DNA of 64,000 nucleotides. It comes from an uncultured Spirochaetaceae bacterium. Lineage in GTDB: Bacteria; Spirochaetota; Spirochaetia; DSM-27196; SLST01. This document shows positions 1 through 63,114 of this stretch, one piece after another. Each line of letters starts with the position of its first letter. Positions within the stretch are counted from its first letter, which is position 1. A program made the position numbers and the translations under genes. The notes under the pieces were generated by a model that was given only the letters and a program-made list of their open reading frames with translations, did no database searches and had not been told where the DNA came from. The stretch covers positions 32,356 through 96,355 of the forward strand of contig CAZICD010000002.1 in assembly GCA_964537725.1 (NCBI GenBank). The letters are read 5' to 3'.

Positions 1-2
1 TC

Positions 3-602
3 GTGAGCGTGGGCCGGGCGCCGAACACCGAGGACCTCGGCCTTGAGAAGGTGGGCGTGAAGACCGAGAAGGGCTTCATCAAGGTCCGCGACTACTACCA
101 GACCGACGTCTCGGGCGTCTACGCGATCGGCGACGTCGTTCCCACGATGCAGCTCGCGCACGTGGCGAGCAAGGAGGGCGAGATCGCCGTGGAGCACATG
201 GCGGGTCACAGCCCGGAGAAGATGGTCGATGCGGACCTCGTGCCGGCGGCGATCTACACCGAGCCGCAGATCGCGAGCTTCGGGCCAACCGAGGAGCAGG
301 CGACCGAGCGCGGTCTGAAGTTCGAGAAGGCTTCGTTCCCCTACCGCGGCGCCGGCAAGTCGGTCGCGATCGGAGCGCCCGACGGGCTCGTGAAGATCCT
401 CTACGAGAAGGAGACGCACGAGTTCATCGCCGCGCACGTCGCAGGGAGCAACGCGACCGAGCTCATCCACGAGCTGCTCCTGGGTAAGCGCAGCGAGCTC
501 CTGCCCGAGGACATCGCGACGATGATCCACGCGCACCCGACGCTCAGCGAGGCCGTCATGGAGGCTGCGCGGGCCGCCGAAGGGTGGGCCATCCACGTCT
601 AG
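3..602 (+). CDS. lpdA: Dihydrolipoyl dehydrogenase (E3), C-terminal fragment; the 5' end lies outside the window
   Basis: The frame is open from the window edge. It contains GVYAIGDV (FAD-binding G-x-x-A-x-G-D) and the C-terminal dimerisation signature HAHPTLSEAVMEAA typical of pyridine-nucleotide disulfide oxidoreductases. Stop TAG is at 600-602. Confidence 0.9.
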   Translation: MSVGRAPNTEDLGLEKVGVKTEKGFIKVRDYYQTDVSGVYAIGDVVPTMQLAHVASKEGEIAVEHMAGHSPEKMVDADLVPAAIYTEPQIASFGPTEEQATERGLKFEKASFPYRGAGKSVAIGAPDGLVKILYEKETHEFIAAHVAGSNATELIHELLLGKRSELLPEDIATMIHAHPTLSEAVMEAARAAEGWAIHV

Positions 603-604
603 CT

Positions 605-1690
605 ATGTCTGAGAACGTTCCCGACAGACCGCACGTAGACCAGCAGAGATTTTCTGCTGGTCTGCTCTTCGTTCTGACGATCATCGCGGTCGGAGGGGTC
701 CTGAAACTCACCGCGGGCATCGTGCAGCCGCTGGTGATCGCGCTCCTGCTCAGTTTCGTTCTCAACCCCATCGTCGAGGCGCTCCACCGCCTCCGCGTGC
801 CGCGGCTGCTCGGTATTCTCCTCGTCATCGCGCTGCTGCTCGGGTTCGGCTCGCTCGTGGCCTTCATCCTCTACACGAGCGTCCAGCGCGTCGTGCGGCA
901 GTTGCCGCTCTACATCGACCGGATGCTCGCGCTGGCACAGCGGGCGACGGAGTTCCTCGAGCTGCCGTCCAGTCTGCTCACCGAGCTGGACATCACCCGC
1001 CGGATCGGTAACTACGTCGTCTCGTTCTCCGGCAGCTTCCTGACGGTGCTGGGCAGTCTCACGATGGTGCTGATCTTCCTGCTCTTTCTGCTTCTGGAGA
1101 AGCCGTACCTTCGTCCGAAGGTGACCGAGGCGCTCCAGGGGCCGCGCACCGCCAAGCTCTGGCGAATCGTCGGGCACACGAACGCGCAGATCGGGCGCTA
1201 TCTGTCGGTGAAGCTCGTGGTGAGCCTGGCGACCGGGCTCCTCGTCTGGGCCGCCTTCAGCATCATCGGCGTCGACTTCGCCTTCGTGTGGGCGGTGCTG
1301 AGCTTCCTGTTCAACTTCATCCCGTCAATCGGTTCGATCGTCGTAGGGGTCGCGAGCTCGGTGTTCGCGCTGGTTCAGTTCTACCCGAATCCGAACCCCA
1401 TCGTCGCCGCGGCGATCTCCATGTTGACAATCCAGCTCGTTCTGGGCAATGTGATCGATCCGAAGCTGCAGGGCGACCGGCTGAAGATCAGCCCGGTGGT
1501 GATTCTCTTCTCGCTGCTCTTCTGGGGGTGGCTCTGGGGGATCGTCGGGCTGTTCCTCGCGGTTCCGCTGACGGTCGCGTTGAAGATCGTCTTTGAGAAT
1601 ATACCGGGGTACGAATTCGTCGCCGTCCTCATGGGCCGCACCGAATCCGAAGAGCACGGGCGGCTCGCGCACGACGAGGAAGAAGAGTAG
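605..1690 (+). CDS. AI-2E family (PerM/UPF0118) membrane transporter
   Basis: Multi-pass hydrophobic protein with the family-typical FNFIPSIGS...GDRLKISPVVILFSLLFWGWLWGIVGLFLAVPL region. I chose ATG 605, three nt after the lpdA stop, over the track start at 584, which overlaps lpdA. Confidence 0.8.
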   Translation: MSENVPDRPHVDQQRFSAGLLFVLTIIAVGGVLKLTAGIVQPLVIALLLSFVLNPIVEALHRLRVPRLLGILLVIALLLGFGSLVAFILYTSVQRVVRQLPLYIDRMLALAQRATEFLELPSSLLTELDITRRIGNYVVSFSGSFLTVLGSLTMVLIFLLFLLLEKPYLRPKVTEALQGPRTAKLWRIVGHTNAQIGRYLSVKLVVSLATGLLVWAAFSIIGVDFAFVWAVLSFLFNFIPSIGSIVVGVASSVFALVQFYPNPNPIVAAAISMLTIQLVLGNVIDPKLQGDRLKISPVVILFSLLFWGWLWGIVGLFLAVPLTVALKIVFENIPGYEFVAVLMGRTESEEHGRLAHDEEEE

Positions 1691-1696
1691 GGAGCG

Positions 1697-2794
1697 ATGG
1701 AAGAGAAGAAGCGTATTCTGACCGGAGACCGGCCCACCGGCCGCCTCCATCTTGGGCACTACGTCGGCTCGCTCAAGAACCGCGTACGGCTGCAGAACGA
1801 GTACGAGTGTTTCTTCCTCGTGGCGGACCTGCATATGCTGACGACCCGGCCGGAGAAGGAGCACATCGAGGCGATCACCGAGAACGCCCGCCAGATGGCG
1901 TACGACTACATGGCGTGCGGCATCGACCCGGCGAAGAGCGTGATCTACCTGCAGAGCGCGGTCACCGAGACGCACGAGCTCAATCTCTACCTCGAGATGC
2001 TCGTCACGGTACCCCGGCTGCAGAGGATGCCCAGCCTGAAAGATATGGCGCGCAACGCCCACCTCAACGAGATGCCGTTCGGGCTGCTCGGTTATCCCGT
2101 GCTCCAGTCGGCCGACATCCTGCTCCCCCGCGCGCACCTCGTACCGGTCGGCAAGGACAACGAGGCGCACGTCGAGCTCACGCGCGAGCTCGCGCGCCGG
2201 TTCAACAACCTCTACGGCGAGGTCTTCCCGGTCCCCGACGTCATGGTCGGCGACGTGCCCACGCTCGTCGGCACCGACGGGCAGGCGAAGATGTCGAAGA
2301 GCCTGGGCAACGCGATCATGCTCTCGGACGACACGAAGAGCGTGCAGAAGAAGGTCAACGGGATGTACACCGATCCGAACCGGGTCAGCGCGGACGTCCC
2401 GGGCACCGTCGAGGGGAACCCGGTCTTCGTCTACCACGACGTCTTCAACCCGAACACCGCCGAGGTCGAAGACCTCAAGGAGCGCTACCGGGCCGGGAGC
2501 GTGGGCGACGTGGAGGTCAAACAGAAGCTCGCAACCGCGATCAACTCGTTTCTTGACCCGATTCGCGAGCGCCGGGCCGAGCTCGAGGCGAAGAGCGGGT
2601 ACGTGGACGAGGTGCTCTACGAGGGCACGAACCGGATGCGGGAGGAGGCGCGCGAGACCATTCTCGCCGCGCGCAAGGCGATGGGCCTGACCGGTGTCTG
2701 GAACAAGATAAGCCGCAAGGCGGAGAAGGCGCGGAAGAAGCGCGAGAAGGACTCCGGAGCGGAGGCTGTCGGTACCGGGGAGGGCGCGGGCTGA
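1697..2794 (+). CDS. trpS: Tryptophanyl-tRNA synthetase with a Lys/Arg-rich C-terminal tail
   Basis: Class I aaRS motifs: RLHLGHYVG (HIGH-type) and KMSKSLGN (KMSKS). N-terminus [15 protein letters not shown] is typical of TrpS. The extra tail is ...[27 protein letters not shown]. Confidence 0.95.
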
Positions 2795-4299
2795 GCGGTA
2801 CTGCAGGCGACATCCGTGCCGTCGTCTTCGACCTCGACGGCACGCTGATCGACAGCGAACCCAACTATCGGGAGGTCGACGCAAGGTTCCTGCTCTCGAA
2901 GGGTATCCACCTCGCCGACGACGAGTGGGACGAGATCGTGGGGATGGGCGGAGCCCCCTTCGTCGACTACCTCCGTGAGCACCACGGCTTCACCGGCGAC
3001 GCCGACGCGTTCGTCGCGGAGAAGGACGAGCTCTACCTCCAGTACGCGCCCGGGCGGACGATCGCATTCCCGCTCACCGTCGAGCTCGTGCGCTACTTCC
3101 ACGTGCATGGCCTCGCTCTCGCGGTCGGGACCTCCTCGCGTCGCCGCGTGCTCGACCGGATGCTCGACGAGGCGGGCCTGCGGGACTACTTCGTCTCGTC
3201 GGTGGCCGGCGATGAGGTGGAGCGGGCCAAACCGTACCCCGACACCTTCCTCGAGGCGGCGAGGCGGCTCGGCGTCGACCCGACGGCGTGCCTCGTGATC
3301 GAGGACTCTCAGCACGGCGTGGAAGCCGCGCGCAGAGCCGGTATGCGTTCGATCGCGGTGCCCGCCACGACCACCGAGGGGCGACCGTGGTTCGGCTCGG
3401 CCGAGCTGGTATTTCCCGGCGGTCCGCCGAAGATCGACTTCGGTTCGGTAGTCGCGCTCCCGGGCATGCCGGCGCCGCTGGCGGCGCCGGACACGGCGAC
3501 CGTCGAGCGGTTTCGCTCGGTCGTGTGGGACTTCTACGCCGGGGCGAAGCGCGCGATGCCGTGGCGCGACACCGACGATCCCTACCGCATCCTCGTCTCC
3601 GAGTTCATGCTCCAGCAGACGCAGGTCTCCCGCGTGCTGCCGAAGTACGAGGCGTTCATCGAGCGGCTTCCTTCTGTGGACGATCTGGCTTCGGCGTCGC
3701 TGCAGGAGGTCCTCGCGCTCTGGCAGGGGCTCGGCTACAACCGGCGCGGGCGCAACCTCCGCGAAGCGGCCCGGACGATCGTCGAACGGTTCGACGGACG
3801 CGTGCCGCGCAGCGTCGAAGACCTGCGCGCGCTCCCCGGCGTGGGACCGTACACCGCCGCTGCTGTCGCGGCCTTCGCCCACGGAGCCCCCGTGGCTGTG
3901 CTCGAGACGAACATCCGGCGACTTCTCATTCACTACTTCTTCGCGCGCGCCGATCGCGTCGGCGATCGCGAGCTCGCCCCGCTGCTCGAAGCTCTGCTGC
4001 CGCACGGGCACGTACGCGACTGGTACTACGCGCTCATGGACTACGGTGCGATGCTCGGGCGCATCCTTCCGAACGCCAACCGACGCAGCGCCTCGTACGC
4101 GAAGCAGAGCGCGTTCTCCGGTTCGGTGCGCGAGGTGCGCGGCCGGATCGTGCGCGCGCTCAGCCGGAGCCCGGAGCTGTCGATCGAGGAGCTCGAGGTA
4201 TCGATCGGGCCGACCGACGAGCGGTTGCGGCCGGCGCTCGAAGGGCTCGAGCGCGACGGCCTGATCGTCGTCGACGGCCGACGCATCACGCTCCGGTAG
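2791..4299 (+). CDS. Fusion protein: HAD-superfamily phosphatase (beta-PGM-like) + MutY/EndoIII-type HhH-GPD glycosylase + C-terminal winged-helix-like domain. The start codon is uncertain and probably non-canonical.
   Basis: HAD motif [14 protein letters not shown] is encoded at 2821-2859, in frame but upstream of the first canonical start (GTG 2938). Other HAD motifs: [30 protein letters not shown]. Glycosylase part: [39 protein letters not shown] (HhH-GPD). The start given here is CTG 2791, overlapping the trpS stop. ATC 2812 and GTG 2938 are alternatives. Confidence 0.7.
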
Positions 4300-6217
4300 C
4301 GGCGCGATCGGCGCGCGCGACGAGGTCGCGCAGCCGCGCGAGCAGCGCGGCCTCGACGTCCGGCCGCTGTCCCTCGACATCCGCCATTACCCGGAAGACC
4401 GGCTCGGTCCCGCTGCCGCGCATCCAGAGAAAGGCGCGCGCGAGGCCGGTGGCATCGGCGAGCTCGATCTTCAGTCCGCCCCGCTCGGCGCCCGTGCGGT
4501 TGCCGGGGCCCGGACGGACGGCAGTCCGCTCGTAGTTCACCACCCGGTACTCCGTCACCCCCAGATCGTCCGGCAGCGAGGCGATGATCGCGCCCGCCTC
4601 GCCCGCGATCAGCCGTTCCGCCTCGCGCTTGAGCTGTGCGTGCGAGTCGCTGCGGATGCGCATGATCGCGCGCTCCTCGAAGGCGCTCGTCGTCGTGAAG
4701 CGGGGGAGGGAGGCGACGAGCGCAGCGAGGTCGTTGCGTTCGATGCCGCCGCCGGGAAGCCCGCAGCGGTCGATCCAGATGTCGAGCGGGGAGGGAGAGC
4801 CGGCCGAGGACTCGGTGTAGAGGAGCTTGAGCACGGCGTGGATCGTGTGCAACGGATCGCGCACCGCCGACGGGTGGGTGATGGTACCGCCGTTCGAGCC
4901 CTCGCCGAGCATGCGCACCAGGACGCCTTCGCCGCGCAGCTCGCGGGCGCGCGCGACCACGTTCGCCTCGCCCACCTCCGCCCGGTGGAGCTCCGCGCCG
5001 AAGAACCTTGCGATTCGGTCGATCCGCAGCGACGTGGGGCCGTTGACGACGACGGCGACTCTTCGAGATGGCCGGCCGTCGCCGTCGTAGGCGAGCTCGC
5101 CGGTGAAGACGAGCCACGCGAGCTCGGCGGCCGTGGAGAGCGCGAACACCTCCTGCGCCTCGAGCTGCCGCGCCTGCGCCGCCCTGCGGTCGTAGTAGAC
5201 GAGGTTTCCGCGGTCGCCGTCGTTGTCCGGGACGTAGCCGAGGACCCAGGAGGGGTCCTCGTGCGCGAGGCGATCGAGCTCGGCGCGGCACGCGGCGAGT
5301 CCTTCACCTTCCGGTACGATCTGGTGGGCAATCTCGCCCGGTCGGTCGTTGATCAGCGCCAGCCGGCAACCGGTCGTCGCGAGGTAGTCCCGGTCGATCG
5401 TCGCCGCCCGGGCGCTCCCGTTGAGGTCGCCGACGACCCCGGGGCCGGCGGCGGCGACGCCGGAGCGCAGATGCTCGAACGCGCGCGCGGCTCGAGGTCC
5501 GTCGCCGGCGATCACGCGGGTGCAGAAGCTCGAGTAGCGTGCGAGCGAATCTCCCTTGGCCTCGGGGATCGCGGCGAACACCGCACGCTCGGCGTCGTCC
5601 GCCGGCCGCGCGAGCTCGGCCGCGATGGCGGCGAGCTCGTCCGGTTCTGCGACGAGCGCGCGGAAGGCGTCGATCAGGGCGGACGCCTCGTCCCCGCCTG
5701 CGACGCCGCCGTCGCGGCCTCCCATCTTGAGCCCGTTGTGACCGACCGGGTTGTGGCTCGCGCTGACGTAGAAGAAGCCGTCGATCTCCGGCGTCGTCGC
5801 CGCGTACGCCATGACCTCCGGGGACGCGCAGACGAAGGGATAGATCACCTCGACGCCGGCGCCGAGCAGGGTTCTGATCGCGGCGCGCGCGAGCGCGGGG
5901 CCCGTGGGCCTCGTGTCGAGCGCGAGCGCGACCCGTGCGCGGCGGTCGCCTCTGCGGACGAGCGTGGCGGCGAAACAGCGCGCGGCCGCGCCGGCGGCGA
6001 CGAGGAGCTCGGGCGGCACATCGCGAGTCGTGCTTTCCTCGCCGCCGTCGGCTGCGAAGACGGTGCGCCACCCGGAGGCCGACAGGATCATGCGGTCGAC
6101 CGCCTCCCGCACCGCCGTGGCAATCGCATCCGACGGCCCGGCCGCGAAGGCTGGATCGACGATCGGCTCGTCGGGGTCGCCGACCGGCAGGCGCGTCCTC
6201 TCGTCGACGATCAGCAT
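4286..6217 (-). CDS. Phosphohexomutase (phosphoglucomutase/phosphomannomutase family)
   Basis: All four family motifs are present: SASHNPVGHNGLK (phosphoserine loop), PDNDGDRG (Mg2+), GEGSNGG (sugar) and RGSGTEP (phosphate). I take ATG 6217-6215 (MLIVDERT...) as the start. It overlaps the stop of the upstream barrel gene by 1 nt (TGATG). The 832-aa track ORF extension runs through that gene and was rejected. Confidence 0.85.
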   Translation of the reverse strand: MLIVDERTRLPVGDPDEPIVDPAFAAGPSDAIATAVREAVDRMILSASGWRTVFAADGGEESTTRDVPPELLVAAGAAARCFAATLVRRGDRRARVALALDTRPTGPALARAAIRTLLGAGVEVIYPFVCASPEVMAYAATTPEIDGFFYVSASHNPVGHNGLKMGGRDGGVAGGDEASALIDAFRALVAEPDELAAIAAELARPADDAERAVFAAIPEAKGDSLARYSSFCTRVIAGDGPRAARAFEHLRSGVAAAGPGVVGDLNGSARAATIDRDYLATTGCRLALINDRPGEIAHQIVPEGEGLAACRAELDRLAHEDPSWVLGYVPDNDGDRGNLVYYDRRAAQARQLEAQEVFALSTAAELAWLVFTGELAYDGDGRPSRRVAVVVNGPTSLRIDRIARFFGAELHRAEVGEANVVARARELRGEGVLVRMLGEGSNGGTITHPSAVRDPLHTIHAVLKLLYTESSAGSPSPLDIWIDRCGLPGGGIERNDLAALVASLPRFTTTSAFEERAIMRIRSDSHAQLKREAERLIAGEAGAIIASLPDDLGVTEYRVVNYERTAVRPGPGNRTGAERGGLKIELADATGLARAFLWMRGSGTEPVFRVMADVEGQRPDVEAALLARLRDLVARADRAATGA

Positions 6218-7329
6218 CAGTAGTGGAACCCGAAGCCGAGCGAGAACGGTACCCAGCGCTCCCCGGTGACGTCGGTCTCCGTCCAGAGGTAGTTCGTGTA
6301 GAAGACCAGGGTCGCCGCGTTGAAGAGGTCGAGGTAGAAACCTGCGCCGCTGGACAGGAGGGTTCCGCTGTTTTCCGCTGCGACCGGAGAGGTCTGCGAC
6401 GCGTCGTAGAACCAGCCGCCGTCGGTGTAGACGACGAGCCCCGGTACGATCCCGGGAAGCACGATGGCCGGCAGGTTCAGCCTCGCCTCCACGTTGCCGA
6501 CCGTCTTGAATGTCGCGTCGAAACGGCCGGAGCGGTAGCCGCGCACCGAGCCTCCGGTCGCCGAGCGGACCGATCGTCCTCCGGTCGTCGACCGGATGAT
6601 CTGCGGGATCTGCGGTCCGTTCGCCCAGTCGACCACCGAGAACGCCGCGAGGTAGGCGGAGAAGCGGTTTCGTCCGTCGACCGGCTCCGCCTCGTAGAGC
6701 GGGAGATAGCCGCGAAGCGTGAGCGTAGTCCGGTTGTAGTCGGCCTCGCCGAGAAGCTGGTTGTGGAGGAAGGGCGGTCCCCACTCGAGCGCGAGCTCAC
6801 CGGCGATTCCATGCTGTACGCGCGTCACGTCGTTCTTCGCGATCTCGCGGTAGGCGACGCCGCCGACGATCGACCCGCGGATGCTCGAATCGGCCTCCGG
6901 CAGGCCCGAGGCGAAGAAGAGCTGCTCGTCGTCCCCGAAGGGAAGGTCGTACTGCCCGCGGTAGAGCAGGAAGCCGACCGCAGTGTCGGCGTCGTCGCCG
7001 CCGCGGTCGAAGATGCCCTGCTGCACGCCGAGCTGCCAGACGAGGTCGAAGCGATCGTAGCTCGTCACGTCTGGGTCGTTGCCGTCCTCGGGGACGGTGT
7101 ACAGCTCTCCCTCGTCGGTACGGTAGTAGCCGGTGCGCTGGTAGGCGGGAGAGAGAAGCCCGGTGATCGACGTTTCAACGTCGTCGGGCGAAGGCGGTTC
7201 GAGCATGTAGCGACCCGCGACGGTCACGCCCCAGAACCGCGGTCCGAACCGGAACTCCCACTGATCGCTCTGCGCCCACGCGCCCGCTGCGATGAGCAGG
7301 AGCGCTGCGATGCTGCAAATTCGCCTCAT
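6217..7329 (-). CDS. Omp85/surface-antigen-like outer-membrane beta-barrel, with signal peptide and no POTRA region
   Basis: N-terminal signal MRRICSIAALLLIAAGAWAQS. The sequence has alternating beta-strand-like character rich in aromatic and Gly residues. The C-terminus is ...VPFSLGFGFHY with a terminal aromatic residue, typical of barrel proteins. Confidence 0.6.
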   Translation of the reverse strand: MRRICSIAALLLIAAGAWAQSDQWEFRFGPRFWGVTVAGRYMLEPPSPDDVETSITGLLSPAYQRTGYYRTDEGELYTVPEDGNDPDVTSYDRFDLVWQLGVQQGIFDRGGDDADTAVGFLLYRGQYDLPFGDDEQLFFASGLPEADSSIRGSIVGGVAYREIAKNDVTRVQHGIAGELALEWGPPFLHNQLLGEADYNRTTLTLRGYLPLYEAEPVDGRNRFSAYLAAFSVVDWANGPQIPQIIRSTTGGRSVRSATGGSVRGYRSGRFDATFKTVGNVEARLNLPAIVLPGIVPGLVVYTDGGWFYDASQTSPVAAENSGTLLSSGAGFYLDLFNAATLVFYTNYLWTETDVTGERWVPFSLGFGFHY

Positions 7330-7391
7330 AGGCGGGCATCGTAGCCCCCCGGAAGCGCTCGGTCAACTGATCCGGGTTGAGGAAGAACTCC

Positions 7392-7420
7392 TTGCGTAAG
7401 ATTATCTCCTTAATTATAAC
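7392..7420 (+). promoter_or_regulatory. Candidate sigma70-type promoter for the response-regulator/kinase pair
   Basis: TTGCGT-N17-TATAAC sits inside the only AT-rich island (7380-7435) between the barrel gene and the regulator gene. Confidence 0.35.
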
Positions 7421-7443
7421 TAAATCAGAAACCTCTACGGGCG

Positions 7444-8706
7444 GTGCGTGTGAAGAAGATACTGGTGATCGACGAGTCGAAACTGTTCCGCGATTTTCTC
7501 ACCCAGAAGCTGGGCGAGTTCGGTTTCGAGGTTGTGGCGGCGGTCAACGGCCTCGACGGCGCGGCCAAGCTCCGACGCGAAATGCCCGACCTGGTGATCA
7601 TGGACTACTACCTCTCCCGTACCTCGTCGGTCGACCTCCTGGACAAGAAGAAGGACGACCCGAACACGAGCGACATCCCGGTGATCATGGCGTCGAGCAA
7701 GATCGACCGCGATAAGCTCGTACAGATCGCGCGGTTCAACGTCAGGAAGTTCTTCACGAAGCCGATTCGTATGGACGCGCTCGTCAAGACGATCTCCGAA
7801 GTGCTCGGTGTGTCGCTCGACATCGACACGACCCCCTGCATCATCGAGGCGCACTTCAACGACGATATCCTGTTCATCGAAATCGCCCAGGGCCTCAACA
7901 AGGAGAAGATCGAGCTCCTGCGCTACAAGATCGTCGAGCTCATGGATCTCTACGAAGTGAAGAGCCCCAGGGTACTCATCATCATGTCCAGCATCGAGGT
8001 CGGCCCCGACGACTCGTTCAAGCTTTCGGCGCTGTTCACGACGGTGATGGACAATACGAAGGCGAAGCCACGGCAGGTGAAGGTCCTGACGAACTCCGAC
8101 TACGTAAGCGAGTTCATCGCCGACCGCTCCGAGTACGAGGGTGTGGAGGTCACGAACAACCTCGAGAGCGCGATGGACGGGCTGCTCGGCCGAAAGGCCG
8201 GGAGCTACATCGACCGCGAGAGCAGGACCGTCCACCAGGAGTTCCTCCAGGCGTCGAGCCCGAAGAGCGACCGGGAGGAGTCGGTCGACATGAAGTTCGA
8301 GGGTGAGCGCGCCAGCTACGACCTGAACGAGCTCGGCGAGGCCGTGACGATCGCGATCGTGGACGACGACTTCGTGATCCGCGAGATGGTGAAGGCGGTC
8401 CTCTCGGACATGGGACCGACGATCCGGGAGTACGAGAACGGCAGGCAGTTCGTCGACGATTCCGACGTGTCGGGCTGCGATCTCGTCTTTCTCGACCTGA
8501 TGATGCCGGAGATGGACGGTTTCCAGGTGATGGCGCAGCTGCAACGCGACGGAATCGACGTACCGATCATCGTACTGTCGGCGCTTTCTCAGCGCGAGAC
8601 CGTGGTCAAGGCGATGAAGTTCGGCGTCACCAGCTATCTCATCAAGCCGCTTCAACCCGAGGCGGTGCTCAACAAGGCCCGGGAGGTCCTGAGGACGAAC
8701 TTCTGA
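7444..8706 (+). CDS. Response regulator with two receiver domains flanking an uncharacterised central region of about 160 aa; no recognisable output domain
   Basis: REC1: ILVIDES...DLVIMDYYL...VIMASS...FFTKP. REC2: IAIVDDD...DLVFLDLMMPEMDG...IIVLSALS...YLIKP. Both keep the acidic pocket, the phospho-acceptor Asp, Ser/Thr and Lys. Confidence 0.85.
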   Translation: MRVKKILVIDESKLFRDFLTQKLGEFGFEVVAAVNGLDGAAKLRREMPDLVIMDYYLSRTSSVDLLDKKKDDPNTSDIPVIMASSKIDRDKLVQIARFNVRKFFTKPIRMDALVKTISEVLGVSLDIDTTPCIIEAHFNDDILFIEIAQGLNKEKIELLRYKIVELMDLYEVKSPRVLIIMSSIEVGPDDSFKLSALFTTVMDNTKAKPRQVKVLTNSDYVSEFIADRSEYEGVEVTNNLESAMDGLLGRKAGSYIDRESRTVHQEFLQASSPKSDREESVDMKFEGERASYDLNELGEAVTIAIVDDDFVIREMVKAVLSDMGPTIREYENGRQFVDDSDVSGCDLVFLDLMMPEMDGFQVMAQLQRDGIDVPIIVLSALSQRETVVKAMKFGVTSYLIKPLQPEAVLNKAREVLRTNF

Positions 8707-21705: not shown

Positions 21706-22203
21706 ATGGGTATGGACAATCGATTCGCCGAACTCGTCGGAGAAACGCAGCGGCTCGCGTCGCACGAGGACCCGGGCGGCGCGCTCGCCCGTATCTGCGC
21801 GTACCTGCTGCGCGAGGTGCCGCACTACGACTGGGTCGGCTACTACCTCGCGGTTCCCGACGAGAAGCTGTTGCTGCTCGGACCGTTCGAAGGCGCCCCC
21901 ACCGAGCACGTGCGCATCGCCTACGGGACCGGAATCTGCGGCCAGGCCGCCGAACGCGGCGACCGGTTCGTCGTGCCGGATGTCAGCGCGCAGGATAACT
22001 ACCTTGCGTGCAGCCTCGAGACCCGGGCGGAGGTTGTCCTCCCGGTTTACCACGAGGGCCGATTCGTCGGAGAGCTCGACATAGACTCGCACACCACCGA
22101 CCCCTTCACCGAGTTCGACGATCGCCTCCTCGACGAGGTCGTTCGGATCACCGCTCCGCTCGTCGCCGAGCTCGACGAGCCGGTCAGCCGCGGAGTGCGA
22201 TGA
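21706..22203 (+). CDS. GAF-domain protein of the free methionine-(R)-sulfoxide reductase (fRMsr/YebR) type
   Basis: YDWVGYYL...[24 protein letters not shown]...[15 protein letters not shown]...GELDIDS is the characteristic single-GAF fRMsr pattern. Confidence 0.8.
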
Positions 22204-23206
22204 ACAGCACGAGATAGACCGGCATCGCCACCAGGTAGGCGACGTAGGTCACGAGGAGCGTGACTGCCGTGTGCTCGGTGTTCACGCCCGCCTCGCCGAC
22301 CATGAGCGAGAAGTTCGTGGCCGGGGGCGTGTGCATCTCGAGAAAGAGTGCGAAGACCGCGACGGGCGCGAGCGACCGCAGGACGCCCGTCGCGTAGAGC
22401 GCGAAGAAGGCTCCGGGCAACAGAACGAAACGCACGCTCACCACCGACAGGGCGAGGCCCAGGTAGTGACCGAAGGCGCCCTTCGGCACTTCGAGCCCCC
22501 CGATGAGCGCGCCGAGGCTCACGAGCGCGAGCGGGAGCGTGATCGACGAGAGCCGGTCGATCGCGTCGAAGAGGTGCGCGACGGGCAGGTTCGGGTTCTC
22601 CGTGAGATCCGGGAGGCCGCTCAGCGACAGAACGACCCCGATGACGATACCGACCAGCGGCGGTGAGATGAGCTTCTGCCATCGGACCCTCTGGCGGCCC
22701 TCCTCCGGCGTCGTGATGATGAGATTGCCGACCGACCAGAGCAGCGGGCTGAACACGAAGAGATAGGCGGCGACGTGCACCGGCACGAGGTCGGGCGCGA
22801 ACGACTCGGCGATGATGGGGACCGAGACCGGCACGATCTCGCCGATCGTGAGCGGCATGTAGCCGGAATTGCCGAACGAGGCCATCGCGATGCCGGCGCG
22901 TCGGTTGGCGCCGGAGAAGGGCAAGAGCGCGAAGAGCCCGAAACTCAGCGCGAGGCCGAGCGCTACCATCGCCGCGCCGGCGAGCGGCATGATCGCGAGC
23001 TGGCCGAGGCCGGAGAGGTCCGTGCGTCCCACGCGCGCGACGAAGTAGAGCGGCAGCGCCACCCGGACGACGAATCGACTCAGCTCGGCAAAGAAGCGGT
23101 CCGACCAGTGACCGGTGCGCCGCACGACGAAACCGACGGCGATGAGCATGATCAGCTGCAGGACGGCGTAGAAGACAGGCAGGAGGTAGCTGGACATCCG
23201 GCCCAT
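22184..23206 (-). CDS. AEC (auxin efflux carrier / Mem_trans) family transporter
   Basis: About 10 hydrophobic helices in two halves. The N-terminus LLPVFYAVLQLIMLIAVGFVVRR is typical of the family. Confidence 0.8.
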   Translation of the reverse strand: MGRMSSYLLPVFYAVLQLIMLIAVGFVVRRTGHWSDRFFAELSRFVVRVALPLYFVARVGRTDLSGLGQLAIMPLAGAAMVALGLALSFGLFALLPFSGANRRAGIAMASFGNSGYMPLTIGEIVPVSVPIIAESFAPDLVPVHVAAYLFVFSPLLWSVGNLIITTPEEGRQRVRWQKLISPPLVGIVIGVVLSLSGLPDLTENPNLPVAHLFDAIDRLSSITLPLALVSLGALIGGLEVPKGAFGHYLGLALSVVSVRFVLLPGAFFALYATGVLRSLAPVAVFALFLEMHTPPATNFSLMVGEAGVNTEHTAVTLLVTYVAYLVAMPVYLVLFIALRG

Positions 23207-23224
23207 TATAGCGAGTGGTCCGTG

Positions 23225-23254
23225 TTGACAACAGAGATTGGGACTCCCTACTAT
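23225..23254 (+). promoter_or_regulatory. Candidate sigma70-type promoter for the secreted TPR-like protein gene
   Basis: TTGACA-N18-TACTAT, followed by GGAGGTGG (23263-23270) and ATG 23273. Confidence 0.45.
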
Positions 23255-23272
23255 GGCGGCTCGGAGGTGGAG

Positions 23273-24166
23273 ATGCGCACGAGGAACCTGGTGACACTGG
23301 TTATGATCGCGATTGCCGCGGTGAGCGTATCCGCGCTCGATCAGGATGCGGTCGATCGGGCCGACGAGCTCTACGAGGACGACCGGGCCGAGGCGGCCGT
23401 CGAGACGCTGGAGGGCGCGCTCTCAAGCGCCGGAAGCGGGCCAGAGCGGGCGGAGGTCTACTGGCGCCTCGCGCGCGCGACGCTCTCGGTCGGGGAGGCG
23501 CTCGAAGACGAGGGCGCCGCCGCGGACGAGGTCCTCCCGGTCTACGAGCAGGGCGAACAGTACGGTGTCGACGCCGTGGAGGCCGACCCGGAGAATCATC
23601 TGGGCTACTACTGGCAGAGCGCGAATATTGGGAAGTGGGGGCAGGTGAAGGGGATCGTCAACGCGCTCTTCAAGGCCGCGCCCATGCGCGACCTGCTCAA
23701 GCAGGCGATTACGCAGGAGCCCGACCACGCGGACAGCTACTACGTGCTCGGCCAGCTCTACGCGCAGGTGCCCGGCGTCATTTCGTTCGGCAACGACGAC
23801 TACGCGGTGAGTCTCGCGCGCAAGTCCGTCGACCTGCACGAGGCCGAGCTCGCCTCCGGTGAGACCGACGACGTCGAGCACGACTTCTACATCCAGCTCG
23901 CGAGTCATCTGATGGAGCGCGACTGGAACGGCCGCAAGCGCTCGCGAGAACACGACGCCAAGCGGGAAGCGTACCGGGCCACGAACGATCGTCTCGAGAA
24001 GGGCTGGTACTACGAGGGAACGGTCGAGATCCCGGATACGAGCGACCGCGACGAGGCGGAGAACCTGCTCGCGGACATGATCCGGCGGCTCGAGGCGATT
24101 TCCGACCGCACCGACGGTCAGGACCGACAGCTCGAGCGCGCCCTGGGACTGATGGCCGACCTCTAG
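23273..24166 (+). CDS. Secreted helical (TPR-like) protein of unknown function
   Basis: Signal-like N-terminus MRTRNLVTLVMIAIAAVSVSA. The rest is helical-repeat-like and rich in acidic residues. Start chosen from the promoter and SD context. The 463-aa track ORF upstream part is antisense to the AEC gene. Confidence 0.5.
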   Translation: MRTRNLVTLVMIAIAAVSVSALDQDAVDRADELYEDDRAEAAVETLEGALSSAGSGPERAEVYWRLARATLSVGEALEDEGAAADEVLPVYEQGEQYGVDAVEADPENHLGYYWQSANIGKWGQVKGIVNALFKAAPMRDLLKQAITQEPDHADSYYVLGQLYAQVPGVISFGNDDYAVSLARKSVDLHEAELASGETDDVEHDFYIQLASHLMERDWNGRKRSREHDAKREAYRATNDRLEKGWYYEGTVEIPDTSDRDEAENLLADMIRRLEAISDRTDGQDRQLERALGLMADL

Positions 24167-39737: not shown

Positions 39738-41158
39738 CGTACCATGCCGGAGCGCGATTGGACGAGGTCCCGGAAACGGTTGCCGCGGTCGAACTCGTTA
39801 CGGAACATCCCGAACGACGCGCAGCCCGGCGACAGGAGGACCACCTCCCCGGCGCGCGCGGCCGCGCGCGCGGCGTCGAACGCAGCCTCGAGCGACTCGT
39901 ACGGCCCGTCGTACGAGCCGCCGGCGGCCTCGAGAAGCTCGATGATACGCCGCGTCGCCGTTCCTTCGAGGAGGTGAAGCGACGCGGTGCGTCCGGCGAT
40001 TTCCGCGAACGCGTCGAGCGGAAGCCCCTTGTCGCTCCCTCCGGCGATCAGATGCACCGGTGCGTCGAAGCTCTCGAGCGCCGCGACCGCGGCTTCCGCG
40101 ATCGTCGCCGCGGAGTCGTTGACGTAGCGCACGCCCTCGTCCACCGCGACGACTTCGAGCCGGTGCGGGACGCCGGCGAACGAGGCGGTTCGCCGGCGGA
40201 CCTCGTCGGCGGGTACGCCGAAGAGGTGCGCGCCCACGCCCGCGTAGAGGAGGTTCATCCGCATGTGGCGACCGGAGAGCGTCGTCTCGTGGGGCACGAG
40301 CGTCAGCGGCGCCTCGCCGTCGAGGCGCAGCACACCCCGGTCGCGGTCGAATCCGGCGACCGAACCGGCGGGCGGCAGCGCTCTCTCGGCGGTGAAGCGA
40401 ACGACCCGCGACGGGTGGGGCGGTCGGTAGGAGCGCGACCAGGCGTCGTCGTCGGAGAGCAGGCACCACTGATCGGGCTTCTGGCCGGCGAAGATGAGCG
40501 CCTTGTCGGCGGCGTAGGCCTGCATGGAGTCGTAGTAGTCCTGATGATCGGGAAGGAGATTCGTGACCGCGGCGATGTGAAACGACGGGCGCCGGCCGGC
40601 GACGCCGGAAGACGCGAGCAGGAGGTCGCCGAGCTGGAACGAGGAGAGCTCGAGTACGACGGGCGCGTCGCGGTCGATCTCGCGCGCGAAGGTCAGCGGC
40701 GATACGGTGATGTTGCCTCCCAGCCGTGCCTCCGGGTAGCGGGCCGCGATGACGTGCTGAAGCGCGCTCGCGGTGGTCGACTTCCCCTTCGTGCCGGTGA
40801 TCGCGAGAACCGGGCCGGTGTGACCGGAGAGGAAGATCGAGATATCGGTTTCGATCCTCCTCGCCTCGCGCAGCAGTGGAGCCGTTCGCGGAACCGCCGG
40901 GTTCTTCACGACGATGTCCGCGGCGCGGAAGTCGTCGGCCTCGTGACGGCCGAGCACGAACCGGATGGGAAGGTCCGCGAGCGAGGCGACGCTTTCGCCA
41001 AGCGCCGACTCGTCGCGCAGATCGGTCACCGTGACGCTCGCCCCGGCCTCCGCGCAGAACCGTGCGGAGGCGGCGCCTCCGCCGTGCGCCCCGAGTCCCA
41101 TGACCAGAACCCGCGCGCCGGAGAGGTCATACCGGGCCGTGTTCGATCTCGAACTCAC
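39734..41158 (-). CDS. murD: UDP-N-acetylmuramoylalanine--D-glutamate ligase
   Basis: N-terminal Rossmann-like VLVMGLGAHGGG and P-loop ITGTKGKSTT are present. The stop overlaps the add start (ATGA). Confidence 0.9.
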   Translation of the reverse strand: MSSRSNTARYDLSGARVLVMGLGAHGGGAASARFCAEAGASVTVTDLRDESALGESVASLADLPIRFVLGRHEADDFRAADIVVKNPAVPRTAPLLREARRIETDISIFLSGHTGPVLAITGTKGKSTTASALQHVIAARYPEARLGGNITVSPLTFAREIDRDAPVVLELSSFQLGDLLLASSGVAGRRPSFHIAAVTNLLPDHQDYYDSMQAYAADKALIFAGQKPDQWCLLSDDDAWSRSYRPPHPSRVVRFTAERALPPAGSVAGFDRDRGVLRLDGEAPLTLVPHETTLSGRHMRMNLLYAGVGAHLFGVPADEVRRRTASFAGVPHRLEVVAVDEGVRYVNDSAATIAEAAVAALESFDAPVHLIAGGSDKGLPLDAFAEIAGRTASLHLLEGTATRRIIELLEAAGGSYDGPYESLEAAFDAARAAARAGEVVLLSPGCASFGMFRNEFDRGNRFRDLVQSRSGMVR

Positions 41159-42089
41159 GCTCGTCCTCCTCGTTCAGGTAGCGTCGAACCTCGAAGCGTT
41201 CCCACGGTCGCTGCCAGCTCGCGTCGATCGACTCCTTGATCCGCCTGAACGCCGGCAGCTCCTCGGTGAAGCCGTCCTGCTGCACGCTGCGCAGACTGTC
41301 CTCGATCTCCCGCAGGTGGGGCAGCAGCGTCTCTCGCGCTCGGTGGAGCAGCTGCACCGAGCGACGTAGCGCGAGGTCGGAGAAATCGATCACCGAATGC
41401 GCGATCGTTCGATACTTGCACGTGAAGGGGAAGTAGGGATACGTGTGGACGTCGGCGGGCACGAAGAGCCTGCTGAAGAACTTGGTCAGATCACGGTCGA
41501 GCCACATTCCCGCGCGCATGTAGCCGCGGCCGGTCTCGCCGATCCACGTGTCGCTGATCGACTGCTCGAGCCGGAGCGCGCGCACGCGCTTGCGGTCGGT
41601 CTCGACGTCGACGAGCGGGTAGAGATCGGCCTCGAGGAAGACGTCCCGCGTGCGGTAGCGGGCCGTCGCCGCGTTTGTCGTCCGTTCGACGAGCCGCGAG
41701 TGCTTGGGACGGTAGGTCAGGTCGAGCTGGACGAGGTAGAGGTAGGTGATGTCCCTGAGCCGGTAGAGCCGGAAGAAGCCGGGTCGAGCGTTGTTCGACG
41801 GGTCGAAGAGGTGCGTCAGTCCGCCGATCAGGTCGGGATGCCGATCCTGGATCTGCGCGACGACGCGTCGCACGGCGCGGGAGAGGTCCCTGCCGGGAGC
41901 GCGATCGTCGAGGTCGTGGTGAACCGGGAACGACGGCACCTCGATCTCGTCCGGGAGGCGAACGAAGAACTCCTCGTTCTGCGAGAAGTGCGCCGAGTAC
42001 GACGCAGCCGGCTCGTTCCCCGAACGGAGGCGCGCGTTGATCTCCGAGTCGCTGTAGGTGACGCGAAGCGTGCCGGACTGCAGTACCAC
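41127..42089 (-). CDS. Hypothetical protein; start uncertain
   Basis: This is a long ORF with ordinary, non-shadow amino-acid composition and no motif I recognise. The track start ATG 42203 would overlap the divergent FecR-like gene by 60 nt. GTG 42089 is an in-frame alternative. The 3' end overlaps the murD start by 32 nt. Confidence 0.4.
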   Translation of the reverse strand: MVLQSGTLRVTYSDSEINARLRSGNEPAASYSAHFSQNEEFFVRLPDEIEVPSFPVHHDLDDRAPGRDLSRAVRRVVAQIQDRHPDLIGGLTHLFDPSNNARPGFFRLYRLRDITYLYLVQLDLTYRPKHSRLVERTTNAATARYRTRDVFLEADLYPLVDVETDRKRVRALRLEQSISDTWIGETGRGYMRAGMWLDRDLTKFFSRLFVPADVHTYPYFPFTCKYRTIAHSVIDFSDLALRRSVQLLHRARETLLPHLREIEDSLRSVQQDGFTEELPAFRRIKESIDASWQRPWERFEVRRYLNEEDEREFEIEHGPV

Positions 42090-42143
42090 CCCCTTAGCAT
42101 ACCCACTTTGTTCCTTGTGGTGAAACGAATTGTAGGCTATTCT

Positions 42144-43340
42144 ATGCGCATGCGAAGGCAGCTGCTCCTGCTCGGCCTCCTCGTCGCTCTGCCTGCTCTT
42201 CACGCGGTGGCGCAGGCGTCGTTGGGCGTGATCGTCTACGCGGAGGGCGGGGAGATCACGATCCTTCGCGACGAGGAAGAGATCGACCTCGACGCGGGAC
42301 TGGGAGAAGCGCTCGGCGAGCCGGTCTACGCCGACGACCAGGTCACCACCGGCGAGGACACGTTCGCCGAGATCCAGTTACTCACCAGCCGCAACGTCGT
42401 GAAGATCGCCGAGAACACGACGTTCACGGTCGCCACGGTGGAAGACGGGCGGAGCTCGCTGAGCGTCACCTACGGCCGCCTGCGCGCGCGCGTGGAGCGG
42501 CTCGCGGGTACCGGTCGCTTCGAGTTTCGCGGGATCACCGCGAGCGCCGGCGTCCGGGGAACCGACTTCGCCTACGATCAGGTCCTCGATCCGTCTACCG
42601 GCGAGCTCTACAACCGGGTCTCGTGCTTCGATGGCGAGGTGATCGTTTCCGCGAGCTCCCGACCGGAGCTCTCCGTTGCCATCGGAGCGGGGGAAGCGGT
42701 GTTCGCGCCGGTCGGCGCCTCGCCGGAGGAGGCCGTCCTCGGGCCCGTCCCGGAGGCGGTGCAGGCCTTCTGGGCCGAGCGGCCGTTTGTCCGGCAGCCT
42801 GCCGCTCCCGCGGACGTCCTCGACGAGTTTCCCGGGCTTCGTGAACGCGCGTCGAGGCGGCTGGGAGTTCTTCCGGAGGCTGAGCCGGTCGTCGAATCGG
42901 GATCGGTCGAGGAGGGGGCAACCGAGGACGGCGCAACCGACGACGGCGAGGACACGACGGCGAGCGCGCAGGGCGAGCCCGGAACGCCGGAGAGCGACGA
43001 GCCGGCGGCCGCACCGGCTCCGACGGTCACCGAGCAGGAGACCGCGCGCGGCGCCGGGGAAGACGCGTCGCCGGAGGGCGAACCGGGCGAGACGCCGCAG
43101 GACGACACCGAGCGGCGCGAGCGGGTGGCACGCGCCTTCCGCACGACCGGTATCGTGCTCGCCGGTGCAGGGCTCGTGACCGACATCGCGGCGATCGGGC
43201 TCTTCTACTTCGGCGAGGACGTCTTCGCGGGATGGACGGCGGCCAACAACGACGCCTTGCGACCGGTGGCGATTGCGGGTGTGGGTATGCTCACCGGGGG
43301 GCTGATTTCGATCGTCGTCTCGCTCGCGGTCTCGCCGTAG
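42144..43340 (+). CDS. FecR-domain protein with signal peptide, acidic linker and C-terminal TM anchor
   Basis: Signal MRMRRQLLLLGLLVALPALHAVAQA. FecR-like beta region: VTTGEDTFAEIQL...TFTV...RGITASAGVRGTDFA. The C-terminus has two hydrophobic helices. Confidence 0.65.
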   Translation: MRMRRQLLLLGLLVALPALHAVAQASLGVIVYAEGGEITILRDEEEIDLDAGLGEALGEPVYADDQVTTGEDTFAEIQLLTSRNVVKIAENTTFTVATVEDGRSSLSVTYGRLRARVERLAGTGRFEFRGITASAGVRGTDFAYDQVLDPSTGELYNRVSCFDGEVIVSASSRPELSVAIGAGEAVFAPVGASPEEAVLGPVPEAVQAFWAERPFVRQPAAPADVLDEFPGLRERASRRLGVLPEAEPVVESGSVEEGATEDGATDDGEDTTASAQGEPGTPESDEPAAAPAPTVTEQETARGAGEDASPEGEPGETPQDDTERRERVARAFRTTGIVLAGAGLVTDIAAIGLFYFGEDVFAGWTAANNDALRPVAIAGVGMLTGGLISIVVSLAVSP

Positions 43341-61546: not shown

Positions 61547-63114
61547 CCGAAGGTCTCCTCCATGGAATCGAGCTCGGCGGTCAACGCGGCGCACAGGTCC
61601 TCCCACGCGCGGTCGCTCGCGGTCGCCGCCGAGCCGGACGCGGGGCGGCACCACCGCAGGAGCTCGGGAAGCGCGAGGGAGGCGGCGACGTGCGCGAGGA
61701 GGGGCTGCTCGACGCCGAAGCGGTGCGCCGACCCCGGTGGTTCTGCGCTGCGCACGATGTCGCGCAGATTGCGTACTCTCTCTCGCACCTTCTGCCGCCG
61801 CTCGTCGCGGGCCGGCCAGTCGAGCGAGTGCCACGCGACCCCGGGGTGCGCGCGCGGCATGCCGGCGAGCTCGCTCTCTCCTACCGTGGGCATCCCGGCG
61901 AGCGCGGGCGAGGGGGCGAGTACGAAGAAGGGCGCGTAGCGCTGTGTTGCCTGCGAGGCGAACCATCGCGCGTAGGTGGCGAGGGTGCGGTCGCTCGTCC
62001 AGCCGTTCCCGAGGTCGGTGTGCGAACGCGTGGAGTCGTAGACCGCGGTAGTAAGCGGAGCGAGACGCGATGCCGCGGCGCGGCGATAGGTATGCGAGAG
62101 GTGCGGTCGGACGTGAGACCGGCCTTCCAGCCAGGCGAAGTCAGCTCCGCCTACCACCACCGGCGCGCCGGTGAGCCGGCGGGCGAGGCCGGCGGCGGTT
62201 GCGGTCACCGTGCCCTGCGGGGCCACGCTCGGGATGCCCGTGCGTCGCGGAGAGAGCAGCGCCTCGTCTTCGGGATCGTCCTCGGCGAGGGGGGCGACGC
62301 GCGCGCAGGCGGAGAGGCCCCGGGTCGCGGCGAGGGGCGCCGCAACCGGAACGTCGGCGTGCGCGCCGCGGGCAATGAGCGGGCGCAGGTGCTCCCACCC
62401 GTACACCGCGGCGTCCGTGGCGACCACGAGGTCGGGGGTGAGCCCCGCGTGCGCGAGCGCGGAGAGCGCGGAGGAGGTCGCCCACAGCTCGATGCGCCGG
62501 CGTGCGGCCGCGATCGTCGGGATGCCGCGCTCGAGCCCGGGACCGGCCCCGGCTATGACCACTGCGGCGATTCGTCGCGTCGCGGGCCTCGGCGCAACCG
62601 GCGTGATATTGAGGTAGTTGTGAATGCGATTCCGGTACCACCGCCGACCGAACGCGCCCCGGGTGACGAGGCTCGCCTGCGCCTCGGTGACGTGCCGGGA
62701 GAGCGCCGCCCGCGCCAGCCCGGCCGCCTCGGGTGAGGCCTCAATCGCCGGTTGCCATTCGAGTACGGTGAGCGATGCCGTGTCGAGGTCGGTGAGCTCG
62801 CGCGTGAGGAAGCGGTCGATCGACTCGCGGTCGGGCTGCCAGGTCGCGTCGGCGTGAGCCACCAAACGGCGATTCAACCCCGGAACGAGCGGGATTCCCA
62901 GCGTGCGCGCGTGCGGTGCTACGCGGCGGATCGCGTCGAAGGCGTACCCGAGTCCCGGTCCCACGACGATGACGAGTCGCGGGGATTCGCCTTCCACCGT
63001 CGAGACGAAGCGCTCGGCCTCGCGAACCGGGTCGAAGCGCGAATGGAGGTGTCGGTCGTCGATCGATACGGTGAGGGCTCCGGTCCTGGTCTCGAGGAAG
63101 CGCGGCTCGCTCAC
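61543..63114 (-). CDS. Motility-accessory-factor (Maf) / DUF115 family protein, second paralogue
   Basis: Core: AAVVIAGAGPGLERGI...LWATSSALSALAHAGLTPDLVVATDA. GTG 63114 overlaps the upstream gene's stop (GTGA). Confidence 0.7.
   Translation of the reverse strand: MSEPRFLETRTGALTVSIDDRHLHSRFDPVREAERFVSTVEGESPRLVIVVGPGLGYAFDAIRRVAPHARTLGIPLVPGLNRRLVAHADATWQPDRESIDRFLTRELTDLDTASLTVLEWQPAIEASPEAAGLARAALSRHVTEAQASLVTRGAFGRRWYRNRIHNYLNITPVAPRPATRRIAAVVIAGAGPGLERGIPTIAAARRRIELWATSSALSALAHAGLTPDLVVATDAAVYGWEHLRPLIARGAHADVPVAAPLAATRGLSACARVAPLAEDDPEDEALLSPRRTGIPSVAPQGTVTATAAGLARRLTGAPVVVGGADFAWLEGRSHVRPHLSHTYRRAAASRLAPLTTAVYDSTRSHTDLGNGWTSDRTLATYARWFASQATQRYAPFFVLAPSPALAGMPTVGESELAGMPRAHPGVAWHSLDWPARDERRQKVRERVRNLRDIVRSAEPPGSAHRFGVEQPLLAHVAASLALPELLRWCRPASGSAATASDRAWEDLCAALTAELDSMEETFG

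Follow-up and report, generated by a model that had tools for sequence, protein, structure and literature searches.

Where does translation of a gene begin when its catalytic motif is encoded upstream of every canonical start codon? This question is raised by a locus of an uncultured Spirochaetaceae bacterium, which was analyzed within a stretch of 64,000 nucleotides from contig CAZICD010000002.1 (hereafter, the window; positions are counted from its first letter). At the 3′-end of trpS, the gene for tryptophan--tRNA ligase, an open reading frame (ORF) begins that encodes a HAD-IA hydrolase domain fused to a MutYX-type adenine DNA glycosylase (HAD-MutYX), and the nucleophile motif of the HAD domain precedes the first in-frame ATG, GTG, or TTG. 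A comparison of orthologous loci indicates that translation of a 502-amino acid fusion protein probably starts at CUG 2791–2793, the codon that overlaps the stop codon of trpS.

The region was re-read codon by codon. Frame 1 has a TGA stop codon at 2554–2556 and is open from 2557 to the stop codon at 4297–4299. The first in-frame canonical start after 2557 is GTG 2938, and the next one is ATG 2944. The peptide containing the HAD nucleophile is encoded at 2821–2859, upstream of GTG 2938, with the codon for Asp14 at 2830 and that for Asp16 at 2836 (residues are counted from CTG 2791). CTG 2791–2793 lies in the same frame and overlaps the TGA (2792–2794) that ends trpS, which extends from 1697 to 2794 in frame 2, and the overlap reads CTGA (2791–2794). 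An earlier note on this DNA had claimed the lack of ATG, GTG, and TTG in frame 1 from 2557 to GTG 2938, the presence of the nucleophile motif in that frame, and the overlap of CTG 2791 with the trpS stop codon, and the re-reading bore out all of this. The near-cognate codons in frame 1 before 2938 are CTG at 2698, 2791, 2845, and 2890, and ATC at 2812, 2848, 2905, and 2935. The gap by itself is only mildly unusual. At the rate at which canonical start codons occur in frame within the HAD-MutYX gene itself (27/451), zero occurrences in the 48 codons past the trpS stop have a p of about 0.05, and zero in 127 codons a p of about 4e-4. The gap is significant because an essential catalytic motif lies inside it and because the arrangement is conserved.

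The identity of the product was analyzed with profiles and structures. The HAD half of the 502-amino acid product matched PF00702 (2.4e-30) and PF13419 (4.9e-27), and TIGR01509 exceeded its cutoff. The matches to the Pfam HAD models start at residue 8, which is encoded by ATC 2812, or at residue 11, and the alignment with the closest solved structure, E. coli YniC (PDB 1TE2), starts at residue 4. The residues D14, D16, G17, T18, S116, K147, D172, and S173, which represent the four HAD motifs, were invariant in 26 of 26 orthologues. With motifs I–IV and the Pfam and NCBIfam matches, this half has the features of the HAD-IA hydrolases. Residues from about 239 to 502 form a MutY-like HhH-GPD glycosylase. 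The C-terminal 272 amino acids matched the structure of MutYX (PDB 8UUC) with an E-value of 2.6e-64 over residues 23–240 (218 residues), and no Cys occurs in residues 231–502, so that the four Cys ligands of the [4Fe-4S] cluster are lacking. Both features are those of MutYX, and this half is predicted to be a glycosylase of that type. The canonical MutY profile TIGR01084 was matched only at positions 2–189 of 277, with 185.5 bits against a cutoff of 286.5. The lack of Cys and the motifs SE(F/V)MLQQTQ and ETN(I/V)R are common to the protein and to MutYX (PMC12631127), but here a HAD-IA phosphatase domain is fused to the N-terminus; neither "haloacid" nor "phosphatase" is found as a word in the MutYX structure paper (PMC12631127). 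A database search yielded at least 39 proteins with the HAD plus MutYX architecture, nearly all from Spirochaetota metagenome bins. In a profile scan of genome contigs with the family alignment, stand-alone MutYX-like genes dominated, and none of the matches covered the HAD half. In one orthologue (P0039, 448 amino acids), the HAD half is visibly degenerate (DLDRVRPD...) and the glycosylase half is intact; judged from this sequence, some lineages may not need the phosphatase domain.

Selection on the N-terminus was quantified as the ratio of nonsynonymous to synonymous substitution rates (dN/dS) between the window and four relatives (L001, L002, L004, and L085). For residues 8–51, which correspond to the 44 codons that are out of reach of any canonical start, dN/dS was 0.22–0.26. 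The same comparisons yielded 0.17–0.28 for the rest of the HAD domain and 0.19–0.32 for the glycosylase half, and the remainder of the gene had values of 0.17–0.25. This pattern of substitutions indicates that the N-terminus is translated. It had been considered in the earlier note that the HAD domain might be expressed without its nucleophile Asp; the purifying selection on residues 8–51 and the invariant catalytic residues of the 26 orthologues contradict this option.

Next to the window, DNA was available for 13 further orthologous loci, so that 14 loci were compared. They were derived from metagenome-assembled genomes (MAGs) of NCBI, from Logan assemblies of separate runs, and from JGI/ENA metagenomes. 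A DNA pattern search of metagenome contigs for DLDGTL(I/V)DSEPxYR yielded three contigs; two were new, and both of these were CTGA loci. The gene order was identical in all 14 loci, namely an AI-2E transporter gene, trpS, HAD-MutYX, and a convergent PGM/PMM-like gene. An in-frame CTG overlaps the trpS stop codon in 11 further loci, and together with the window CTGA was thus present in 12 of 12 (window, L001, L002/L003, L004, L085–L090, L091, and L092; 49–81% protein identity to the window). With the exception of L085 and L088 (GTG) and L091 (TTG), the CTGA loci have no canonical start between the junction and the VxFDLDG motif. The codon of the nucleophile Asp follows the CTG at a distance of 11, 13, or 14 codons, and in every one of these loci the spacer is in frame and free of stop codons. 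The last codon of trpS differs between the loci (GGC, CGC, GTC, AGC, and TCC), yet its third base is C in 12 of 12 loci. The frequency of C at third positions is 0.48, and at a control site in the same 12 loci, the base preceding a conserved Trp codon of trpS, the distribution was C7/G3/A1/T1. A Shine-Dalgarno core of 4–6 nucleotides (GGAG, GGAGG, AAGGA, or AAGGAG) is located 5–10 nucleotides upstream of CTG in all 12 loci; as a background, a core of at least four nucleotides at this spacing occurs at 9–10% of the window positions.

In the remaining two loci (L094 and L095), the homologous trpS/HAD junction reads GTGA, and a Shine-Dalgarno core of at least four nucleotides is lacking. Their GTGA shows that a start codon overlapping the trpS stop is a shared feature of the family. 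In a neighbour-joining tree, the CTGA loci occupied three places and were interleaved with orthologues for which a canonical start has been called. As judged from the aligned sequences, CTGA persists to about 50% protein identity.

Taken together, the presence of CTG in 12 of 12 loci, the spacer that keeps the frame, the Shine-Dalgarno core in 12 of 12 loci, and the GTGA of L094 and L095 favor CTG 2791 as the start codon. The frame-keeping of the spacer points to CTG because nothing would enforce the frame if translation began further downstream. Sequence features by which a CTG start can be recognized were found, namely no canonical start ahead of the conserved residues, a suitably spaced Shine-Dalgarno core, and conservation of codon and frame in the orthologues. 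The NCBI annotation of one relative (P0002) begins at the CTG and is in independent agreement with this assignment. Among the options of the earlier note, a non-canonical start is the one favored by the comparative data, with CTG 2791 as the codon. A further in-frame NTG, located upstream at the Trp codon of trpS (CTG 2698 in the window; GTG, ATG, or TTG in relatives), was rejected as a start codon. Its first base varies freely, and in-frame stop codons intervene in 4 of the 12 loci. Non-canonical starts as a genome-wide habit were rejected, as no other gene of the window needs one, and the use of CTG is thus specific to the trpS/HAD junction. Among about 37 coding-like ORFs of the window, the only other long stretches ahead of a start whose base composition was coding-like were at 22184–23422, 41127–42377, and 63111–63998, all on the minus strand; the former two have ordinary starts, and the latter is cut by the edge of the window. 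Other four-nucleotide overlaps in the window are three of ATGA and one of GTGA.

The following course of events is proposed. A ribosome that has completed trpS would terminate at UGA 2792–2794, and the Shine-Dalgarno core GGAGG (2779–2783), 7 nucleotides upstream of the CUG, would keep this ribosome bound to the mRNA. It would then restart one base back, on the CUG, with initiator tRNA, and the codon would be decoded by fMet-tRNA. Initiation is probably coupled to the termination of trpS, but free 30S subunits may also initiate de novo at the same Shine-Dalgarno/CUG site. We infer that the weak codon has been retained so that the DNA glycosylase is made at a small and fixed fraction of the abundant TrpS.

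Several other explanations of the gap have to be weighed against a start at CUG 2791. Translation might begin at ATC 2812 or another near-cognate codon downstream of CTG, which would result in a protein of about 495 amino acids and would render the CTGA overlap incidental. ATC is a near-cognate start of table 11 with an efficiency in E. coli similar to that of CUG (bioRxiv 10.1101/063800), the Pfam HAD model begins precisely at the residue encoded there, NCBI calls two relatives of at least 90% identity (P0121 and P0122; 495 amino acids) from the equivalent codon, and in the window, L001, L002, L004, and L085 this codon is ATC or ATA. However, L087 and L088 have GTC instead, and in L089 and L090 no codon corresponds to it, compared with CTG in 12 of 12 loci. 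ATC 2812 also lacks a usable Shine-Dalgarno motif, as GGAGG is 28 nucleotides away and only GCAGG is nearby, and a start there would leave both the frame-keeping spacer and the constant C before TGA unexplained. The earlier note had placed ATC 2812 where related HAD proteins usually have Met, but the initiator of the nearest orthologues with a canonical start (M/V-I-R-A-V...) aligns with GAC 2809 instead. On balance, a start at ATC 2812 appears rather unlikely. Initiation at GTG 2938 or ATG 2944, which would yield a MutYX glycosylase with a catalytically dead HAD remnant, is very unlikely. These codons are the first canonical starts, the equivalent Met was chosen by Prodigal-type callers in P0001, P0003, P0004, P0011, P0031, P0036, and P0037, and the Met of VGMGG is conserved in many orthologues. 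Nevertheless, the 44 upstream codons, among which the invariant DxDGT is encoded, are under the same constraint as the remainder of the gene, the Met is located inside the HAD fold, where it aligns with internal residues of E. coli YniC (PDB 1TE2), and it is also internal in orthologues that have canonical starts further upstream. In addition, gacgagtgggacgagatc, just upstream of 2938, contains no GGAG, GAGG, or AGGA core. An error of sequencing or assembly, the third option of the earlier note, or a recent pseudogenizing mutation might have removed an ATG or GTG. The GTGA at the homologous junction in L094 and L095 is only one base different from CTGA. But the same CTGA is present in 11 other loci, which were derived from different samples, assemblies, and sources (NCBI MAGs, Logan, JGI, and ENA), the seven members of a 90%-identity cluster, each on one contig, also have no canonical upstream start, and purifying selection acts on an ORF that is intact. 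The note had proposed to inspect the orthologues for an ATG or GTG at 2791–2815, which would have pointed to an assembly error. One was present only in the distant L094 and L095, as GTGA, and none in the four closest relatives (L001, L002/L003, and L004), so that there is no pointer to an assembly error. An error has next to no probability left and is effectively refuted.

In a further explanation, a fraction of the ribosomes on trpS would not terminate but would shift by −1 at or near CUGA and produce a TrpS-HAD-MutYX fusion of about 96 kDa. In line with this, the HAD ORF lies in the −1 frame of trpS, and in each locus this frame continues through the junction without a stop codon. An upstream Shine-Dalgarno-like element can stimulate frameshifting, for example in dnaX and prfB, which counts in favor of such a shift. 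A frameshift fusion at an AUGA overlap has been considered, and reported beside reinitiation, for uPPE2-PPE2 of M. tuberculosis (PMC11260477). However, an X_XXY_YYZ heptamer is absent from the overlap in 7 of the 12 loci including the window and is found at non-homologous positions in the others, and the variable last codon of trpS (GGC, CGC, GTC, AGC, or TCC) allows no common re-pairing in the P-site. RNAalifold analysis of the junction revealed only invariant coding pairs, no covariation, and no conserved downstream structure, and the local folding energies of the 14 loci were ordinary (z −1.05 to +1.6). A hairpin of the window that encloses the Shine-Dalgarno core and the CUG (GGUACCG/CGGUAC) was discarded because it is not conserved, and an Rfam search of window positions 1–8000 yielded no matches at E ≤ 0.1. 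The slippery heptamer and the conserved stimulatory RNA structure that mark programmed −1 frameshifting are thus both lacking. Moreover, in L088 the HAD frame opens merely 30 nucleotides before the junction, and the ordinary GTG start at the junction of other orthologues implies a stand-alone product there. A frameshift is therefore highly improbable, and the same low probability applies to the idea that CUGA is a recoding site with a non-releasing one-base slip, at which the conserved GGAG would be the stimulator and a repair enzyme would be tied to a tRNA synthetase.

Some observations also weigh against initiation at CUG 2791. In E. coli, initiation at CUG is very weak, with about 1–2% of the efficiency of AUG on one reporter and 0.02–3% on others (bioRxiv 10.1101/063800). 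The stringency of start-codon choice in these uncultured Spirochaetota may differ from that of E. coli. In L085 and L088, a GTG is present at the first V of VVFDLDG, and in L091, a TTG is located three codons past the CTG; each of them could serve as the start in the respective locus. NCBI called the two relatives of at least 90% identity from the ATC-equivalent and not from CTG. The 12 loci are related by descent and represent about six deep lineages, and the conservation counts are thus not fully independent. The Shine-Dalgarno core would equally permit de novo initiation that is uncoupled from trpS. Lastly, the assignment of the start in every family member rests on sequence comparison.

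The junction can be compared with several known systems. In E. coli, CTG is the start codon of hda and yfjD (PMC3531124), and AUU is that of infC and pcnB. These genes and HAD-MutYX have in common a near-cognate start with a ribosome-binding site (PMC3531124, PMC3592434), and all were recognized by conservation and by the absence of a canonical start before the conserved residues. The weak start codons of the four E. coli genes are thought to limit expression (PMC3531124, PMC3592434). In contrast to them, the HAD-MutYX CTG is a start codon predicted from sequence, and it is conserved across lineages to about 50% protein identity. Termination-reinitiation at overlapping stop and start codons has been established in bacteria and archaea (PMC6728339, PMC12548453). 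The junction resembles coupled pairs with ATGA or GTGA in the co-directional arrangement, the four-nucleotide overlap, the Shine-Dalgarno motif inside the upstream ORF, and the conserved synteny, and the orthologues L094 and L095 exhibit the textbook GTGA (PMC6728339, PMC12548453). It differs from them in the proposed restart codon, which is CUG in 12 loci and GTG in L094 and L095 only, whereas the surveys describe ATGA and TGATG (PMC6728339, PMC12548453); the term CTGA is absent from the text of one of them (PMC6728339). In addition, it is not obvious that an aminoacyl-tRNA synthetase and a phosphatase/glycosylase would be parts of a common complex. For the AUGA overlap of uPPE2-PPE2, reinitiation and a fusion by frame change were both considered (PMC11260477), as they were here, but that overlap has a canonical AUG, and the HAD-MutYX junction lacks a conserved slippery sequence or stimulatory structure. 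The CTGA junction is no new kind of mechanism. Near-cognate initiation and four-nucleotide stop/start overlaps are known phenomena, of which the HAD-MutYX junction is a new, deeply conserved, and well-supported example.

The features of the locus are listed in Table 1.

Table 1. Features of the trpS/HAD-MutYX locus; positions refer to the window.
Feature	Position	Strand	Remarks
trpS (tryptophan--tRNA ligase)	1697..2794	+	365 amino acids, frame 2, stop TGA 2792-2794; TIGR00233 match ends at residue 331
Shine-Dalgarno core GGAGG (within GGGGAGGG, 2777-2784)	2779..2783	+	7 nucleotides upstream of CTG 2791, inside the last trpS codons
CTG, proposed initiation codon of the HAD-MutYX gene	2791..2793	+	overlaps the trpS stop as CTGA
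N-terminal spacer SGTAGD, poorly conserved	2794..2811	+	length varies by whole codons in relatives, stop-free
ATC, alternative near-cognate candidate	2812..2814	+	equivalent to the PGAP start in relatives of at least 90% identity; not conserved across the CTGA loci
HAD motif I DLDGT, nucleophile Asp14 and Asp16	2830..2844	+	frame reading, Pfam, alignment, structure match
HAD-IA hydrolase domain, residues 8-190	2812..3360	+	Pfam/NCBIfam profiles, 1TE2 alignment
First canonical in-frame starts GTG 2938, ATG 2944	2938..2946	+	ATG 2944 is the start of the 451-amino acid P0001, in which motif I is missing
MutYX-type clusterless adenine DNA glycosylase half: HhH-GPD and C-terminal domain	3505..4296	+	cysteine-free; PMC12631127
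HAD-MutYX fusion, proposed full coding sequence, 502 amino acids	2791..4299	+	translation, profiles, dN/dS

Residues 332–365 of TrpS (window 2690–2791) form a C-terminal extension rich in Lys and Arg that reaches past the end of the TIGR00233 model. A part of this extension, WN(K/R)ISRKAE.ARKKR, is retained in 14 of 14 loci, and the last 10–15 residues are variable. Judged from the alignment, the Shine-Dalgarno core and the CTGA that are embedded there seem to have shaped these last residues. A scan of positions 1400–4500 for promoters and terminators revealed none at the trpS/HAD junction, and a search of the 64-kb window for tRNA genes found none. HAD-MutYX and the convergent PGM/PMM-like gene, which is located on the minus strand, share 14 nucleotides at their 3′-ends (4286–4299), and the same tail-to-tail overlap of 14 nucleotides is present in L002, L003, L004, L085, L087, L089, L090, L094, and L095. 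The PGM/PMM-like gene (4286–6784) has an open frame of 832 codons, compared with 600–680 amino acids in called orthologues, and its true start is probably located well within its ORF.

The annotation of the family is affected in several ways. In the databases, N-termini have been placed at the CTG (P0002, 510 amino acids), at the ATC-equivalent (P0121 and P0122, 495 amino acids), and at the internal ATG (P0001 and others, 451 amino acids). The window's own gene is on record as P0001, with 451 amino acids from ATG 2944. The seven members of the 90%-identity cluster are all called from the internal Met or the ATC-equivalent. JGI (for P0127) and NCBI (for P0023) chose an upstream NTG inside trpS as the start. 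Annotation pipelines assign as many as five N-termini to the family, namely the CTG, the ATC-equivalent, the internal ATG, the GTG at VVFDLDG, and the upstream NTG within trpS. The nucleophile Asp is absent from 12 of the 39 family entries, and these would be taken for inactive phosphatases.

The main value of the CTGA finding is the correction of such annotations. A CTGA stop/start overlap is invisible to gene finders that are restricted to ATG, GTG, and TTG, and the arrangement may be hidden in other places. The locus is also a candidate experimental system. At its junction, it could be tested in a natural setting whether reinitiation that is coupled to termination relaxes the choice of the start codon. 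For this family of Spirochaetota, the retention of a weak start over deep divergence, with GTG in other orthologues, suggests selection for an output of the glycosylase that is low and fixed relative to that of the synthetase.

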